IMG/VR virus record: IMGVR_UViG_3300010397_000001
Location: 1-64,000 of that record
From: a virus
Direction: 5' to 3' (one strand)
DNA length: 64,000 bases
Shown here: in pieces, positions 11,968 to 18,406 of the stretch
Numbering within the stretch: position 1 is the stretch's first letter
Layout of the letters: every line of letters begins with the position of its first letter
Program-made: the position numbers and the translations under genes
The notes under the pieces: generated by a model
Told to the model about the DNA's origin: nothing
Seen by the model: the letters and a program-made list of their open reading frames with translations, nothing else
Database searches by the model: none

Positions 11968-12474
11968 TTAGGACTTCTTCGCCCTCTTCATCTTTACAGT
12001 CTTCTTGGCCGACTTCTTCACCTTCTTCATGGCCTTCGCCGGCTCTGCTTTCTTGCTGGTGCGCTTCTTGATGTTGGCCTTGCGGTAGTCCGGGATCTCC
12101 TCCGGCGGCACCAGACGCCATCCGCCCATCTCCACGGTGAAGCCCAACTGACGCGCGCGCGTCAGCACCTGGTTGAAGATGGTCGAGACCGGCTTGACGT
12201 TTCCACCAGTAGTGGTCTCACCGTCGAAGCACGTGACCAGGGCGTCATGGACTGCCTTACGGTCCTGCCCTCCGAGTCTGATGACTTCGTAGGCCCTGTG
12301 CAGATCCGAGTTCATGAGGAAGCCCAGCTCGTCACGCGTCTTGTCGTCAGGTGTTTCAACGACCTCCACCACGACGTCAGCCGGCTTCGCGCGCATTGCC
12401 TTCTTGGCGCTCTTGGCGGCTTTCGGCTTCACAGCCTTGCGCGCGCTCTTCACTACCTTCTTAGCCACAGCCAT
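11968..12474 (-). CDS. Basic protein with Lys/Ala-rich termini, putative DNA-binding
   Basis: KKAxK-rich N- and C-termini around a roughly 90 aa core; RBS GGAG. Confidence 0.6.
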   Translation of the reverse strand: MAVAKKVVKSARKAVKPKAAKSAKKAMRAKPADVVVEVVETPDDKTRDELGFLMNSDLHRAYEVIRLGGQDRKAVHDALVTCFDGETTTGGNVKPVSTIFNQVLTRARQLGFTVEMGGWRLVPPEEIPDYRKANIKKRTSKKAEPAKAMKKVKKSAKKTVKMKRAKKS

Positions 12475-12586
12475 CTAATTCACTCCATGTAGTTCCAAAG
12501 TTCAGTTAAGCCACTGTAGCACTAGTACTTAACTCTATGAAGATCAGCACTCTGTAGTAGATGTCTACTGTGTTCAGCCACTCAAG

Positions 12587-12645
12587 GGCGTAGGTGTGTA
12601 GGCTAGCTGCGCTTTAGGCTGCGCTTAAGCCTACACACCTACGCC
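12587..12645. repeat. Perfect 18-bp inverted repeat in the divergent intergenic region
   Basis: GGCGTAGGTGTGTAGGCT ... AGCCTACACACCTACGCC; the spacer holds GCTGCGCTT twice. Confidence 0.85.
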
Positions 12646-12846
12646 AACTCTTGTCCTTAAAGGACTTTAGCCATAGTTATCTCGCGCATGCGTACGCGCG
12701 TAAGGGAAGCGTGAGGCGACGTGGTCCGATTTCCTTGCTGCGCAGTGTTTTCATGAGGTGATCACAAGTCGTCAGAATGTCCGATTCACACCATGAATCC
12801 ACCCAAACGGCCTGCCATTTGCTGACCGAAAGTATGATTCAGGGGG

Positions 12847-12875
12847 TTGATTTACCGGGGGTAAACGACTAGGCT
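12847..12875 (+). promoter_or_regulatory. Housekeeping-sigma-type promoter
   Basis: TTGATT - 17 bp - TAGGCT at the head of the plus-strand early region. Confidence 0.6.
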
Positions 12876-12879
12876 TGCG

Positions 12880-13041
12880 TTGCACGGCAAGCAAGGGGAC
12901 AGGGTCGGCGCAAGCGGCCCACACGTTCATTGGCAACTACACGCGGTTTACGGATCACCCCTAGTGGGATGGCGAAGCGCTAGCAACAGGCTTACCGCGT
13001 GTGGCGATGTCAAGTGCGTGCACAACCAAGCACCGTTGCAC
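12880..13041 (+). ncRNA. Candidate structured leader or small RNA
   Basis: GGGTCGGC-GCAA-GCGGCCC hairpin; TACACGCGGT (12938-47) pairs with ACCGCGTGTG (12994-13003), extended by TTGGCA/TGTCAA; no convincing ORF. Confidence 0.45.
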
Positions 13042-13189
13042 TTGTTCTTTGATGAACTGAATATCTGGCTTCACTAGCTAGCCCTGCTGACGCGTCCCTG
13101 TGACGCGCGTAGGCCAGGAAGGTACCTGGACTAGGGCTAGCCGTGGAAGGACGGTCACACGCGCGCACAGCGTCTTTAAGGGGCATCCC

Positions 13190-13369
13190 ATGACTGCTGT
13201 CGCACCGACCACCTATGGTCCTGCCGCTCGGCGCTCCGCACTGGCGGACTACCGACGTAAGCAGGCCATGACGGACCAGGAACGCGATTCGCGAACCTGG
13301 ACGGCCATGGCTTCCGAACTCCGCGCCGACTATGACGCGACGGAAGCCAAGCACCCCGGCTGTTTCTGA
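13190..13369 (+). CDS. Small hypothetical early protein
   Basis: RBS AAGGGG before ATG; phage-like codon usage. Confidence 0.5.
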   Translation: MTAVAPTTYGPAARRSALADYRRKQAMTDQERDSRTWTAMASELRADYDATEAKHPGCF

Positions 13370-13495
13370 CCGCAACCGCTCACAGACAACCCAACCATTC
13401 ATCTGTGCGCGTTTGTGACTGTCCTTCCACGTTCTGTGCACTCCAGTGGGCCACGCTGGCGCACGCGTCCTGCCACCCCTGAAAGGGGAATCGAC

Positions 13496-14101
13496 ATGAC
13501 CCGTCACCAGCTCTGGCTTGTGTACGCCGCTCTTACGCCTGTTCTCGCAGCGTCGGCGTACGCGTCTTTCAACCACACGGTGCACGTGGCGCAACGGTAT
13601 GGGCAGGATGTTGTTTCCGCCCACCTGTTGCCGCTCTCGATCGACGGCCTGATGCTGGTTGCCAGCATCGTGCTCACGTCGGCGAAAACCAGGCGCGCGA
13701 TCTTCATCGCACGCGCCACGCTGGTGCTCGGCTTCACCGCTTCGTTCGCAGCGAACATGCTGGCGACTCAGGGCGGCGTAATCGCGCACATCATCAGCGG
13801 ATGGTTCGCCGCCTCGTTGTTGCTGGGAGTTGAACTCCTCCAGCACACGAACACGCGCAGCATGAAGGTTCGCGCCACCAAGGCCGAACTAGAGGCAGCC
13901 GCGATCGAGGCAGAAGCTACGGCAAAGGCCGAAGAAGAGGCGCGCATAGCCGCTGCCCTTAAGGCCAAGCGCCAGGAATCCGCTCGCAAGGGCGTAGAGA
14001 CCAAGCGCGCCAAGAAAGCTGCTGTTGCCACCAAGCGCCCCTCACGCAAACTCACGATCGTTGCAGCGTCCGATGACGTTCCGACCGCTCAAGTTTCCTA
14101 G
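13496..14101 (+). CDS. DUF2637-like membrane protein (actinomycete plasmid spread-protein-like)
   Basis: ASF.H...VA..YG......LLPLSIDGL..VAS and S..AN motifs; four TM segments and a basic tail. Confidence 0.7.
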   Translation: MTRHQLWLVYAALTPVLAASAYASFNHTVHVAQRYGQDVVSAHLLPLSIDGLMLVASIVLTSAKTRRAIFIARATLVLGFTASFAANMLATQGGVIAHIISGWFAASLLLGVELLQHTNTRSMKVRATKAELEAAAIEAEATAKAEEEARIAAALKAKRQESARKGVETKRAKKAAVATKRPSRKLTIVAASDDVPTAQVS

Positions 14102-14242
14102 ACCTTTTCCTACGCCGCGCGTCAGCGTGGCCCTCTAGGGTGCACAGGATGTGAAGCCATTCCGTTTTGCTTGCGGACACCTGCCTAGGGTATGGAGCGC
14201 GTTCAGTAGACGAATGCTAAACCCCTTCCCAAGGAGCACACT

Positions 14243-14617
14243 ATGGCAGTTTTGGCGCGCAGAATGTTTGTTTCCGGCCCCGTTGGTGCCACCCTCAGGG
14301 CGGACTACGTGAAGAAAGTTCGTCAGTACTACCGCGCGGTTGCGGCTGACATCAAGTCCGTACCTCGCGTTCACATCACGGTGGAAGGTACCTCGCAACT
14401 CGTGTTGAACGTGCCCGATCGTGACGTGTTCATCAGAGTTACTCACCCTGAAGAGATGTTCGAACTGACCGGAGACAAGGCCGACCGCAAGTGGTGGGTC
14501 GGCGTGGTCGACTCAGAAACCGGTGAAGACCTGTCGTACGCGATGTATGGCGCTAATTCCGACACAGCGACCATCGCTCGTCGGGTTGATGCGTTGTTCC
14601 GCAAGGTTTCCAAGTAA
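14243..14617 (+). CDS. Hypothetical protein
   Basis: RBS AAGGAG; 124 aa. Confidence 0.6.
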   Translation: MAVLARRMFVSGPVGATLRADYVKKVRQYYRAVAADIKSVPRVHITVEGTSQLVLNVPDRDVFIRVTHPEEMFELTGDKADRKWWVGVVDSETGEDLSYAMYGANSDTATIARRVDALFRKVSK

Positions 14618-14710
14618 GGCCGAACTCCAGCCCCTAGGCATATGCCCGCAAGCAAGACGGACCCTGTAGGCAGACACACGCGCACGGTTCACCCTTTGAA
14701 AGGGGTGGCC

Positions 14711-14971
14711 ATGCCTCCGGTCAAGAAAACACTGCCGGCCGCTCTGACTCCAGTCAAGAAGACGGCCAAGAAGGTTGCTCCTCGTCCTGTTCGTGCGGTT
14801 GCGCCGCCGGCTGGCATCGAGGTACGTATGACGCGTTCGCGTGAAACCAAGGGAACATACGTCTACGAGGACAGCACGGAAGGTACGCCTATCCGTGCGC
14901 TGTACATTTCGAAAGGGACCACAGACCAGGAACCTCCACTGTCCATCGTGGTCACTATCCTGCCTGCCTGA
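14711..14971 (+). CDS. Hypothetical protein with basic N-terminus
   Basis: RBS AAAGGGG; RETKGTYVY..LYI.K motif. Confidence 0.55.
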   Translation: MPPVKKTLPAALTPVKKTAKKVAPRPVRAVAPPAGIEVRMTRSRETKGTYVYEDSTEGTPIRALYISKGTTDQEPPLSIVVTILPA

Positions 14972-15267
14972 TTCATTCAGCCCGTGCGCGTGTGCGTGCC
15001 TACAGGGGTATTCGGGTCAAACTACACAGAGGAAAGTGGGTAGGGGACTTAGCACCCCTGCCACCCTCTCGTACGTCCTAGTGGAGGCACGCGCATTCAG
15101 GGCGTACGGGGGTAGGTAGATGCCCCATGGGGCACAGAACGGCGCTACACGGGCCTTACAGGGGCCTTGACGCGCGTCGCCTAGACAGGGTGGCAGGCTG
15201 CCTTACGGGCAGTTAGGGGCTGTGCGCCTCTACCGATGTTCGTAGACATGCGCCACGGATTCACACT

Positions 15268-15654
15268 GTGAATGGAGTGGTGAACATGGACGCCAATGCA
15301 GCACTCAAAGAGATCCGGGAAATGATCAAGGACCTGGACGGCGCCGACCAGAGCAGCCAGCGGTATCGAGGGCTGGTCGCCGATTTCATCGGGACGGTTA
15401 GCGGGCTCGACGACAGCCTGTCACGTGGTGGCTTCCTGCCCAAAGAGTGGCAGCAGAAGGCAGACGCTGATCTGCTGAAGCTTGAGGGCCAGGTTGAGTC
15501 AGCTCGTACCAACCTGGCCTTGTTGGAGAGGTACTTCGAACAGCATCCACTGGGATCAGTCTTCGTGGAAGAGCAACTGACGTTCGGCATGGAAAATGTG
15601 AAGCGCGCTCAACAGCTGGTCGACAGGATGCTGTCACGCGCGCAGAACCGCTAG
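15268..15654 (+). CDS. Hypothetical protein
   Basis: MDANAAL...LD..LSRGGFLP.EW pattern, reminiscent of actinophage early proteins. Confidence 0.6.
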   Translation: MNGVVNMDANAALKEIREMIKDLDGADQSSQRYRGLVADFIGTVSGLDDSLSRGGFLPKEWQQKADADLLKLEGQVESARTNLALLERYFEQHPLGSVFVEEQLTFGMENVKRAQQLVDRMLSRAQNR

Positions 15655-16240
15655 AGCAACGTCGTTCCGTGGCGCTTGCCTGCGAACATCGGTAGGGGAA
15701 TGGGAGCACAGGCAGCCAAGAGACTCCGACAGGCAAGCTTCAAGCGCTGAAAAGCAGAGACGGTTGCGGGCGGTACATCAGCCGAATCGGGTTACCGGTT
15801 ACGTCTAGGCGAAGTAGAGCGCGACGACCACGGATACACAGCGATCCAACTACCGGGGGTGCCCGGGGTGACGGGGACTCGCTTGACCACGTGGACAGCA
15901 CGCGTTAACGGAGACACAGCAGGCGAACAAGCAGTCAGAAAGCAGTCCGCAGCGCGAGGCGCAAGGGACGCAGGCATGGCACTCATAGAGAAGTGCCCAG
16001 CCGATGCCCTACCCGACCACACCAGCGGTACGCCAGTACAGAGCCGGCTAGGTGTGGGAAGTCCCTGGGAGTGTTGGCTCCCGCATAGGGCAGATCCTGG
16101 CGATAGCTGACGTGAATCTCCACCGCGTAGACGTGTCCGCAGGTGTAGCAATGACGTTGGACGTGAACCTCATGCGTATCCCGGGCGTCGGGTGCCTTTG
16201 TGCCCCCGACGTACCGGCAAGTCGCATGATGGGGCGACTG
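15655..16240 (+). ncRNA. Candidate large structured non-coding RNA
   Basis: About 590 nt without a credible ORF; closing helix 15657-66/16150-59 and many nested stems (see findings). Confidence 0.5.
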
Positions 16241-16256
16241 GAAAGAGGACAGGGCA

Positions 16257-16415
16257 ATGCAGACAGTGGATCGAATCAGGACAGTGGTCACTGAGATCAA
16301 GCAGTGGCGCTACGAAGAGGGGTACCCGCACAACAGGGAAGCGCGGATCATCTTTGACAGCAGGACCGGCACTCCTCGGCTCGTACCTTCGGAGCCGGTG
16401 AAGTGGAATGGTTGA
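16257..16415 (+). CDS. Small hypothetical protein (52 aa, not in the ORF track)
   Basis: RBS GAGGA then MQTVDRIRTVVTEIKQWRYEEGYP...; overlaps the next start codon. Confidence 0.5.
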   Translation: MQTVDRIRTVVTEIKQWRYEEGYPHNREARIIFDSRTGTPRLVPSEPVKWNG

Positions 16416-16692
16416 CATCTACAAGCCTGGAGTGGGGCGGCTGTTCGTCTACCCACGTACGGGTGAGCCGCTACCGAAACGCGGAGATCCAGCGCTGCTG
16501 ATGGCGCACCACTACGGCGAACAGATCGGAGCGTGGCGCGGACAACACCACCACAGCAAGTGGGGCAGCAACCCCTACAGGAGCGCGTGGCGTCAGTTCG
16601 TGACACAGTTTCCGGAAGAAGATCGGGAAATGCTGTACGAGTGGTACATCCATGGTTTGTACAGCGCTTTCAAGGTACACAACGTAAGGTGA
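16408..16692 (+). CDS. Hypothetical protein
   Basis: Operon-coupled ORF. Confidence 0.5.
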   Translation: MVDIYKPGVGRLFVYPRTGEPLPKRGDPALLMAHHYGEQIGAWRGQHHHSKWGSNPYRSAWRQFVTQFPEEDREMLYEWYIHGLYSAFKVHNVR

Positions 16693-16779
16693 CCCAGCGG
16701 CATCGGTTTCCGCACGGAAGAGTCCGTGCGGTTTCCTGCTGTTGGGTATTGTTCACTCATTGAATGATGAGAGGTGCAC

Positions 16780-17394
16780 ATGCCGACATACACGGGTCAT
16801 GGTGACTACAGCGAAGACGAGTGGCCCTACGATCACATCCCGGAGGGCGATACCAAAGAAGATTGGGTTGCCTGGATCCCAGCCATCAAGGAAGTTATTG
16901 AGACCGGCTGGTTTGACGGCTACCTGAAGGAGATCGGAGCGGCGGCGCGCGACCGGTTCATGAGGTTGAAGGCTGCCGAGGCGGCCAACCCCACCGTTGA
17001 CCCGATGCATTCGGCAAGCTCACTCGGTGTGTACTACGACCCTACGGATGACGCTTACTACCGTGTGCGGCGTACGAAGGACAGGGCACGCACTTACGCC
17101 GAAAAGCTCGTCGTGGAGACGGCGGCTGTGGTCGACTCGGCTGGCAAGGTCACCACTCCGGCCAAGGTGCGTTTCAGCTATGAAGATGCCAAGGGGAAAG
17201 TTTTCGACCTTGTGCGGCGTCCTGAGTTGAAGATCGACCTAGACAAAGCGCGTGACTTTGGTGCGGCGTACGGGGTCTGCCTCCGGTGTGGCCGTGGTTT
17301 GAAGTCCAACTCGCCTCACATCAAGGAAATGATCGGTCCAGTCTGTTACCGGAAGATCAAGGATGGCGAAGGAGCCGACGATGGCGATTCGTAA
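16780..17394 (+). CDS. DUF6011-like zinc-finger protein
   Basis: C-terminal CLRCGRGL...IGPVC motif. Confidence 0.6.
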   Translation: MPTYTGHGDYSEDEWPYDHIPEGDTKEDWVAWIPAIKEVIETGWFDGYLKEIGAAARDRFMRLKAAEAANPTVDPMHSASSLGVYYDPTDDAYYRVRRTKDRARTYAEKLVVETAAVVDSAGKVTTPAKVRFSYEDAKGKVFDLVRRPELKIDLDKARDFGAAYGVCLRCGRGLKSNSPHIKEMIGPVCYRKIKDGEGADDGDS

Positions 17395-18406
17395 GTTGAA
17401 GTCTGCTGAGGCACGGTTCCTACCGACCAACAAGGTCGCCACCATCCCCAGCCGGAAGATCCTGGAAAAGTACAAGCCGCGCACCATCTACGGTGTGGAG
17501 GACATGGAGCTGCTGGAAAAGGCACGCCTTAATGGAATGAACGTCCTGCTTGAGGGTCCAACCGGCGCAGGCAAGACGATGCTCACGAAGGCGTACGCGG
17601 CGAAGTACCGCAAGCCGTACTTCGCCAAGCCGAACAACGCCGGCATCGAGCCGGAGGAGCTGATCGGCAAGTGGATCCCTGATCCCAACAACGCGGGCGC
17701 GTGGCTGTACGTGCCTGGCGGTCTCTACGACGTCATCGAGCATGGTGGTGTCAGCTTGAGCAGTGAAATCAACTTCCTGCCTGACCGCGTCGCGTCGATC
17801 CTATACGAGGTGTTCGATGGTCGTCGGTCAGTTACTGTTTCCCGTGACGACCACACTCACGTGATCCAGGCGCACCGTCCGAACTGCTGGTGTGATCTTT
17901 CACTAGCTGAATGCCAGTCGAAGTGGCCGCTCCTGATTGCGGACATGAACCCTGGTTACAGCGGCACTAGAGATCTCAACCAGGCGCTACGAAACCGATT
18001 CGGTCTGATCATTGCGATGGACTACGACAAGGATGTCGAGCAGCAGCTGATCAAGTCAAAGACGCTGCTCAAGATGGCGTGGGATATCCGCACCTCAGCC
18101 GAATCTACTGGTGCTTACACCGATCCAGTCAGCACCAACATGCTGGAAGAGTTTGAAATCGTGGTTCGTGTTGCCGGTCTCGATGCGGCCATGGAAAACT
18201 TCGCCAACCACTTCGTGCAGAGCAGCGAGCGGGCAGCGATCCGCGGCCTGTTCTCCAACCTGCACAGCAACCTTTGGTCGGATTACCGGCGCATCGCTGC
18301 CGAAGCTGAGGGCGTGGAGTACGACCCGATCGAAGATGAGAAAGATCCGGTGCTCAACTCTTCTGACTTCGATGATGGCATGGATGACGATTGGTTGAAG
18401 TCATGA
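17381..18406 (+). CDS. MoxR/CbbQ-type AAA+ ATPase
   Basis: LEGPTGAGKT Walker A, LSSEIN Walker B variant, MNPGYSG..LNQALRNRF. Confidence 0.9.
   Translation: MAIRKLKSAEARFLPTNKVATIPSRKILEKYKPRTIYGVEDMELLEKARLNGMNVLLEGPTGAGKTMLTKAYAAKYRKPYFAKPNNAGIEPEELIGKWIPDPNNAGAWLYVPGGLYDVIEHGGVSLSSEINFLPDRVASILYEVFDGRRSVTVSRDDHTHVIQAHRPNCWCDLSLAECQSKWPLLIADMNPGYSGTRDLNQALRNRFGLIIAMDYDKDVEQQLIKSKTLLKMAWDIRTSAESTGAYTDPVSTNMLEEFEIVVRVAGLDAAMENFANHFVQSSERAAIRGLFSNLHSNLWSDYRRIAAEAEGVEYDPIEDEKDPVLNSSDFDDGMDDDWLKS

Follow-up and report, generated by a model that had tools for sequence, protein, structure and literature searches.

A gap of some 600 nucleotides (nt) in the otherwise densely coding rightward genes of a soil phage raises the question of what, if anything, the intervening sequence does. 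The phage (IMG/VR record IMGVR_UViG_3300010397_000001) was assembled from a soil metagenome as a complete virus genome of 84,364 bp with direct terminal repeats, and the window analysed here is its first 64 kb. An initial annotation, made from the letters alone, had proposed that positions 15655-16240 specify a large, multi-domain non-coding RNA. We find that the left end of the gap is one arm of a long-range RNA stem, which is the fifth and last in a row of stems with a single gene inside each, and that what stands out in the gap is its conserved sequence rather than its folding. Our favoured reading, at a probability of about 0.5, is that 15699-16167 (the block) is a conserved untranslated spacer or leader of a rightward early transcript, bounded by RNase III-type helices, and not an ornate free-standing fold.

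The stem at the left edge was spotted as a second, inverted match when the genome was searched with the gap sequence. Its arms (15227-15259 and 15666-15698) span 33 nt, are 88% complementary and pair with -58.4 kcal/mol; the 5' arm ends 26 nt upstream of an ATG at 15286 and the 3' arm begins 11 nt past the stop codon of the same gene. It closes an array at 13142-15698 made up of the following stems and open reading frames (ORFs), some of which carry a noted Shine-Dalgarno (SD) sequence:

13142-13170/13403-13431, plus strand: stem 1, 29 nt, 90% complementary, -55.5 kcal/mol, 39.1 bits
13190-13369, plus strand: ORF in stem 1, beginning with ATG, 59 codons, with spacers of 19 nt (end of 5' arm to ATG) and 33 nt (stop to start of 3' arm)
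13428-13465/14116-14153, plus strand: stem 2, 38 nt, 82% complementary, duplex -54.7 kcal/mol
13496-14101, plus strand: ORF in stem 2, beginning with ATG, a DUF2637 membrane protein (Pfam, E 3.7e-6), with spacers of 30 and 14 nt
14161-14197/14625-14661, plus strand: stem 3, 37 nt, 84% complementary, duplex -48.6 kcal/mol
14243-14617, plus strand: ORF in stem 3, 124 codons
14662-14687/14982-15007, plus strand: stem 4, 26 nt, 92% complementary, duplex -53.8 kcal/mol
14711-14971, plus strand: ORF in stem 4, beginning with ATG; the 5' arm is adjoined on its inner side by a TTCA-N5-TGAA site (14688), with AGGGG and then the ATG after it
15227-15259, plus strand: 5' arm of stem 5, pairing with 15666-15698
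15286-15654, plus strand: gene within stem 5, 122 codons, ATG at 15286, SD GGAG at 15273-76, codon log-odds 0.39
15666-15698, plus strand: 3' arm of stem 5, inside the interval proposed as a non-coding RNA

These stems are the top five of eight inverted repeats in the whole 84-kb genome, scoring 33.4-41.1 bits (the next scores 29.5 bits), and 30 genomes shuffled in 1-kb blocks gave, in total, one repeat of at least 33 bits. Their duplex energies run from -48.6 to -58.4 kcal/mol, against a background over 12.5-17.5 kb in which the best duplex per 30-nt window has a mean of -28.3 (standard deviation 5.2), with a few local alternatives at about -43. Every stem encloses exactly one ORF, each ORF has its own SD sequence, and the stems follow one another consecutively with neighbouring arms abutting. 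The 5' arms finish 19-45 nt ahead of the start codons and the 3' arms start 7-33 nt beyond the stops, and because the arms sit only in untranslated spacers, ribosomes need never melt a helix. Arm sequences differ between modules, so that the five stems are not copies of one repeat. All five form near-uninterrupted double-stranded RNA of at least about two helical turns from the sequences flanking a gene, as RNase III leader-trailer helices do, and membership of this class is proposed for the five stems, not for the block.

No outer stem was detected, the best duplex between 12480-13141 and the block (-44.7 kcal/mol) being matched by the shuffle mean of -45.0, and a sixth clamp around the gap was rejected, the best internal long-range duplexes (-38.8 to -39.9 kcal/mol) lying within background. 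A transposable element with terminal inverted repeats (a miniature inverted-repeat transposable element, an insertion sequence, or MPME, a type of small mobile element of mycobacteriophages) was likewise rejected: every arm pair has a sequence of its own that is present only once in the genome, no direct repeats were found in the letters flanking 15227 and 15698, and the enclosed proteins gave no match to transposase families.

The phage is, judging from its proteins, distant kin of Gordonia phages, with an AAA-ATPase/CobT-like gene pair at 39-48% identity to Gordonia and Brevibacterium phages such as DalanDe and ChisanaKitsune. The syntenic stretches of these two contain no comparable inverted repeats; the best are 18-32 nt long and 70-94% complementary, and most lie inside annotated genes, judging by their coordinates. 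Full-text literature searches turned up no account of gene-enclosing stems in phage mRNAs, and were too coarse to support a claim of absence.

Known systems offer partial parallels. In bacterial rrn operons, leader-trailer helices bracket the 16S and 23S rRNAs and are cut by RNase III. The array is a variant of this rRNA-style bracketing helix, here on phage cistrons: the helices are again long-range, of about 26-38 bp, would be strung along one transcript, and have their arms outside the functional body. Unlike in rrn operons, each helix encloses a protein-coding cistron with an SD sequence of its own in a phage early operon, cutting is presumed by analogy, and no such helix surrounds the 0.47-kb block, whose best internal long-range duplexes (-38.8 and -39.3 kcal/mol) are of ordinary strength. 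Phage T7 carries RNase III sites, R0.3 to R1.3, between its early genes, and these are local hairpins. As in T7, a host double-strand-specific nuclease would split a long early transcript into stable single-gene messages, and a local 65-nt hairpin at 16168-16232 resembles the T7 sites in position; unlike the T7 hairpins, the stems described here have arms 230-650 nt apart and enclose a whole gene.

Pairing between the 5' and 3' untranslated regions (UTRs) of a single mRNA, with effects on RNase action and stability, is reported for icaR of Staphylococcus aureus, where it controls translation (PMC3868564), and for hbs of Bacillus subtilis (PMC5737220). Both share with the present case the pairing of the two ends of one message, and both are single chromosomal genes, in contrast to the tandem array found here. 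In icaR the UTR pairing reportedly covers the ribosome-binding site, whereas here the SD sequence lies within the loop, at least 13 nt from the arm.

The gap at the end of the array (15655-16256) shows neither codon bias nor a conserved frame and matches no protein family; the initial annotation was right to call it non-coding. Codon-position GC periodicity is flat over 15650-16050 and clear in the flanking genes, strongly so in the left gene. Under a codon model trained on 38 long ORFs of the phage genome, all seven gap ORFs score -0.28 to +0.09 log-odds per codon, against 0.19-0.45 for nine neighbouring genes. A conserved protein ORF, which the annotation had named as the finding that could explain the region otherwise, was looked for and not found: six gap ORFs were compared with Pfam and PHROG and had no family match, and a protein homologue search with the two longest open frames returned no relatives. 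The core of the gap and the features at its right end are:

15699-16167, plus strand: conserved non-coding block, with conservation in three relatives (X2, X4 and X5, below), no coding signal and a fold z-score of -1.87
15739-15751, no strand assigned: copy within the block of TTCA-N5-TGAA, a genome-wide palindrome
16168-16232, plus strand: imperfect hairpin of 65 nt ending the gap, just before the SD sequence GAGGA at 16246-50 and the ATG at 16257
16257-16692, plus strand: next genes, the first ORF with SD GAGGA at 16246-50 and ATG at 16257

Conservation was read from Logan contigs of four other soil metagenome runs (X2-X5) laid on 12500-17000, with identities obtained by arithmetic from the resulting table. 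Over 15664-16170, X2 has 15 other letters and 2 gaps in 507 (96.6% identity), the best of its eight listed pieces; the seven others stand at 85-94%, and over 16166-16991 there are 111 other letters and 7 gaps in 826. X4 has 11 other letters and 3 gaps in 231 over 15664-15894 (94%), and X5 has 16 and 3 in 252 over 15664-15915 (92.5%) and 4 and 1 in 128 over 15989-16116 (96%), with stops in all three plus-strand frames inside the 30 letters beyond 15915. The neighbouring genes in these three runs are 82-94% identical or replaced. In X4 and X5, for example, the left gene keeps 82.5% identity in its 5' half (15215-15420), and 202 unrelated letters take the place of its 3' half (15420-15664). The high-identity block starts at 15664 in X2, X4 and X5 alike, 2 nt ahead of the 3' arm of stem 5. 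X3, a closer relative, is 95-97% identical where covered, and among its listed pieces none lies over the block. Since the block is non-coding and yet better kept than the neighbouring genes, it is likely, on this comparison, to be functional at the nucleotide level.

The same alignments bear on the stems. In X4, 18 pairs of stem 3 are visible, of which 16 are Watson-Crick and three are changed on both sides (14164-14658, G-C to A-U; 14165-14657, U-A to C-G; 14176-14646, G-C to U-A); one U-G pair is lost on both sides and there is one new mismatch (14171/14651). The first 13 letters of the 5' arm in X5 are the same as in X4. This maintained pairing is suggestive and not proof, because it was read off manually and each arm lies on a different contig. 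Three intervals within the enclosed genes (13192-13425, 13263-13381 and 15420-15664, covering interior or 3' parts) are replaced in relatives by unrelated sequence of similar length with both sides alignable, and the X4 replacement of 13192-13425 reaches into most of the 3' arm of stem 1. These replaced interiors suggest that cassettes may be exchanged at or near the stems.

Another proposal is that the block is functionless, a decayed gene cassette or filler that seems conserved through recent transfer between related phages. Phage genomes are mosaic, and identity here shifts abruptly at module borders, as the three replaced intervals illustrate. An open plus-strand frame of 119 codons without a canonical start (15751-16110) could be a dead gene, and the neighbouring spacer carries an insert that is missing in relatives, so that the content of that spacer is dispensable:

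15058-15214, plus strand: insert between stems 4 and 5, 157 nt, non-coding, in the loop of a small hairpin

In X2, X4 and X5, seven letters stand in its place as the small hairpin loop, and X3 covers 15099-15200. The insert has its own 14-bp stem (15057-70/15184-97, 93% complementary) and an 11-nt unit repeated 2.1 times at 15146-15168, and the fold of 14972-15267 has a z-score of -3.86, with none of 200 shuffles as good. We consider a functionless block improbable nonetheless: X2, X4 and X5 (the last two from one study) keep it with the same left border while the flanking genes differ by 6-18%, a dead gene should lose identity no more slowly than synonymous sites in the adjacent genes do, and the 83-codon part of the open frame that was scored retains no codon bias (log-odds -0.07).

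Beyond these runs, relatives were scarce. The gap gave no blastn match in 50,697 phage records, and in tblastn searches with the enclosed and neighbouring small proteins three had no match and the 128-aa ORF matched seven records, at a coverage of at most 66%. Viral, metagenome and genome contigs were searched for related loci with the 128-aa ORF, the AAA-ATPase and a 94-aa protein alignment, and only one distant locus (L005) was retrieved; exact DNA patterns had no hits in such contigs.

The proposed RNA was built on helices, and its complementary words are all present at the positions given for them. The closing helix (15657-66/16150-59) has a single mismatch, a G-U; CTTGCCTG/CAGGCAAG, CCACACC/GGTGTGG and ACGTCTA/TAGACGT are perfectly complementary; and the words GGCAT, GGCACT, AGTGCC, ATGCC, GGGAG, CTCCC, CGTCGGG and CCCGACG were all found. 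Complementary 6-, 7- and 8-mers in 15655-16257 number 56, 18 and 3, against dinucleotide-shuffle means of 49.5, 12.9 and 3.2; out of 500 shuffles, 124, 82 and 278, respectively, had at least as many. Stems are therefore no commoner than in dinucleotide shuffles.

Folding energies tell much the same. The 603-nt fold (-249.7 kcal/mol) has a z-score of -3.02, with none of only 20 shuffles as good, and the stretch includes the arm 15666-15698, which belongs to a different, much stronger helix. With the first 44 nt removed (15699-16215), the z-score is -1.87 and 3 of 100 shuffles are as good. Four sub-domains of the gap give -1.84, -1.33, -0.17 and -0.48, and nine overlapping 120-nt windows range from +1.20 to -2.70. 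The gap is only marginally more structured than chance, and a multi-domain architecture is not supported, neither stability nor stem count standing above shuffles.

The left boundary drawn for the RNA is wrong, since 15666-15698 serves as the 3' arm of the long-range stem that closes the upstream gene. That 33-bp stem (-58.4 kcal/mol) also clashes with two of the helices in the initial annotation: the closing helix (-13.3 kcal/mol) could form together with it only as a pseudoknot, and CTTGCCTG/CAGGCAAG, with an extended duplex of -23.7 kcal/mol, occupies the arm itself. In the fold of 14972-16257 the 33-bp stem is formed and both of these helices are absent, being outcompeted by it. In X2, moreover, the letters before 15664, read by hand, make 4 of the 10 positions in the 5' strand of the closing helix non-pairing, unless the 3' strand has changed too.

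A new large structured RNA at 15655-16240, perhaps with a catalytic or scaffold-like role as in GOLLD or ROOL, is accordingly weakly supported, and we regard it as unlikely. In its favour, the stretch is non-coding and 93-97% conserved in relatives; the z-score of the whole stretch is lower than that of the minus strand (-1.41), an asymmetry that favours the plus strand; a three-hairpin core at 15973-16091 recurs in three minimum free energy (MFE) structures and lies mostly within the best-conserved piece of X5 (15989-16116); and the strong excess of A over T (AT skew +0.40 at 15750-16049, unusual, with GC 0.62) would suit A-rich loops. Apart from the loss of signal when the borrowed arm is removed, the near-identity of primary sequence is not what selection on structure only would predict.

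Comparison with known RNAs gave no help to that proposal. Rfam holds GOLLD, ROOL, OLE, HEARO, RNase P, transfer-messenger RNA (tmRNA), group I and II introns and riboswitches. With Rfam 15 at the gathering score, the whole window has no match, and at E up to 10 over 14600-16400 there are five chance-level hits (E at least 0.84; 14-20 bits against thresholds of 33-70), of which only sR44 (16253-96) touches the edge of the gap. ARAGORN found no tRNA or tmRNA genes in the 64-kb window. The initial annotation had seen no tmRNA, RNase P or intron hallmarks, and the covariance-model search agrees; its comparison with GOLLD and ROOL fares worse, no model for these, or for tmRNA, RNase P or introns, reaching E=0.8. 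The block is outside every curated RNA family. GOLLD, ROOL and OLE are large ornate RNAs of bacteria and phages (PMC12286853). The block is like them in being several hundred nt long, non-coding and in a phage, and unlike them it comes without an Rfam match, without an excess of structure and without adjacent tRNAs in the ARAGORN scan. A group I or II intron was rejected: the ORFs at 14711-14971 and 15286-15654 end at their own stops, the downstream ORF has an SD sequence and an ATG, and intron covariance models had no match over the gap region.

The initial observation is partly confirmed and its interpretation partly supported, and the fold it proposed is unproven and in part wrong. The main value of the present analysis for that proposal is corrective: the ornate fold is unsupported, and its left end is part of another structure.

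Conservation of primary sequence without an excess of structure would also be expected if the block acted as DNA, either as a promoter or operator region controlling the next unit or as a replication or recombination site read by proteins. Features that fit include the TTCA-N5-TGAA copy at 15739, a 12-nt direct repeat (GACGTGAAYCTC, at 16109 and 16160), the inverted TAGACGT words within the block, an upturn in cumulative GC skew nearby (about 14.1-15.0 kb), and the helicase and primase that lie a few kb leftward in the syntenic Gordonia phages. The skew minimum, however, falls upstream of the block and not within it, and the GC content of 0.61-0.62 leaves no AT-rich unwinding stretch. A scan of 12400-17400 for sigma-70-like promoters found none (shuffles average 1.0), the block contains no tandem repeats or iteron array, and no motif is common to the block and elsewhere in the genome at E below 0.57. 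On balance a role as DNA seems doubtful.

The palindrome itself is not particular to the block. TTCA-N5-TGAA occurs 65 times in 84,364 bp, within and between genes, where about 1.3 copies are expected (8 fixed bases, equal frequencies), and the sites near the gap are at 14688, 15260, 15739 and 16752. In stems 4 and 5 a copy (14688 and 15260, respectively) sits exactly where the 5' arm ends on its inner side, with the SD sequence coming straight after it, and the loose end of X5 after 16116 also holds a site. A purine-rich skew of the plus strand runs through the block, as it does in the downstream plus-strand genes.

Returning to the untranslated spacer or leader, the block would lie between the last module with one gene per loop and the next gene block, its left edge being the 33-bp helix that closes the upstream gene and its right edge the 65-nt hairpin before the next ribosome-binding site. 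In that hairpin, the MFE structure makes up 27% of the ensemble, and the z-score is -1.84 (8 of 200 shuffles as good). A long early transcript would fold into a chain of 26-38-bp helices with arms in untranslated spacers only, and by analogy with the 16S and 23S rRNA stems and the early RNase III sites of T7, the double-strand-specific RNase III of the host may cut them. The phage has no RNase III gene; Corynebacterium glutamicum, an actinobacterium taken as control, has one. Each small early message would be freed with its two ends clamped together, and the conserved block would either stay on the downstream message as its 5' leader or become a fragment of its own, about 0.5 kb long. The helices, with their statistical excess and their placement around start and stop codons, are observed, as are the non-coding nature and conservation of the block; that the region is transcribed as a single RNA, that RNase III cuts it and that the block has a role are inferred, the cutting in particular from helix length only.

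Several further observations weigh against this reading. Among the seven runs listed as holding the stretch, none is recorded as RNA. No promoter or terminator was located, so that one continuous transcript is assumed rather than shown. The sole site returned by a terminator scan of 12400-17400 is on the minus strand (13714-13693), and the hairpin at 16168-16232 was not called because it has no U tract; actinophage terminators lacking U tails exist, and the scan therefore does not exclude termination there. The z-scores of -1.87 to -3.02 leave room for some real structure in the block. Conservation is patchy, since the X4/X5 lineage has diverged in mid-block (at about 15916-15988) and X5 departs again after 16116; the 5' half of the DUF2637 gene is also 94% identical in X2, X4 and X5, and the high identity of the block could reflect a recently exchanged mosaic segment rather than selection. 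Finally, the stem 3 arms of X4 are on separate contigs of one run and may belong to different strains.

A variation on the same theme is that the block is released as a discrete non-coding early RNA of about 0.5 kb, cut at the 33-bp stem and the 65-nt hairpin, and that it acts through its conserved primary sequence; it might, for instance, be a decoy or sponge that occupies a host RNA-binding factor of defence or regulation. We hold this to be a long shot; if true, it would be a new kind of phage early RNA, produced by the clamping-stem machinery that packages the neighbouring genes.

In DalanDe and ChisanaKitsune, helicase and primase lie to the left, followed by a rightward block of small genes, and the window has a divergent junction at about 12.5 kb with rightward genes from 13.1 kb. 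Within the junction, 12540-12659 shows a very stable local structure or palindrome (z-scores of -5.85 and -5.64 on the two strands). The stem 5 gene matches PHROG 865 (E 2.9e-12, residues 7-67 of the 128-aa reading), and although that family is named HNH endonuclease, the match covers a small N-terminal domain only. Its product has no Pfam match, and a search of 5.8 billion protein clusters with the 122-aa protein returned the query alone. After the gap come ORFs of 52 codons (16257-16415) and 94 codons (16408-16692), with codon log-odds of 0.21 and 0.23, and a 70%-identical relative of the 94-aa protein was found among 1.84 billion representatives. On the plus strand, 16620-16799, which straddles the border between the 94-codon gene and the gene after it, has local fold z-scores of -3.54 and -5.20 and contains the TTCA-N5-TGAA site at 16752.

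If the spacer or leader reading holds, the first operon of this phage would be a chain of loops, each with one clamped gene, followed by a half-kilobase untranslated stretch that related phages keep more faithfully than their genes. It would extend the 'bracket and cut' logic of rRNA to phage messenger RNAs, and five helices, one spacer and known relatives in soil data make it a concrete, testable case.

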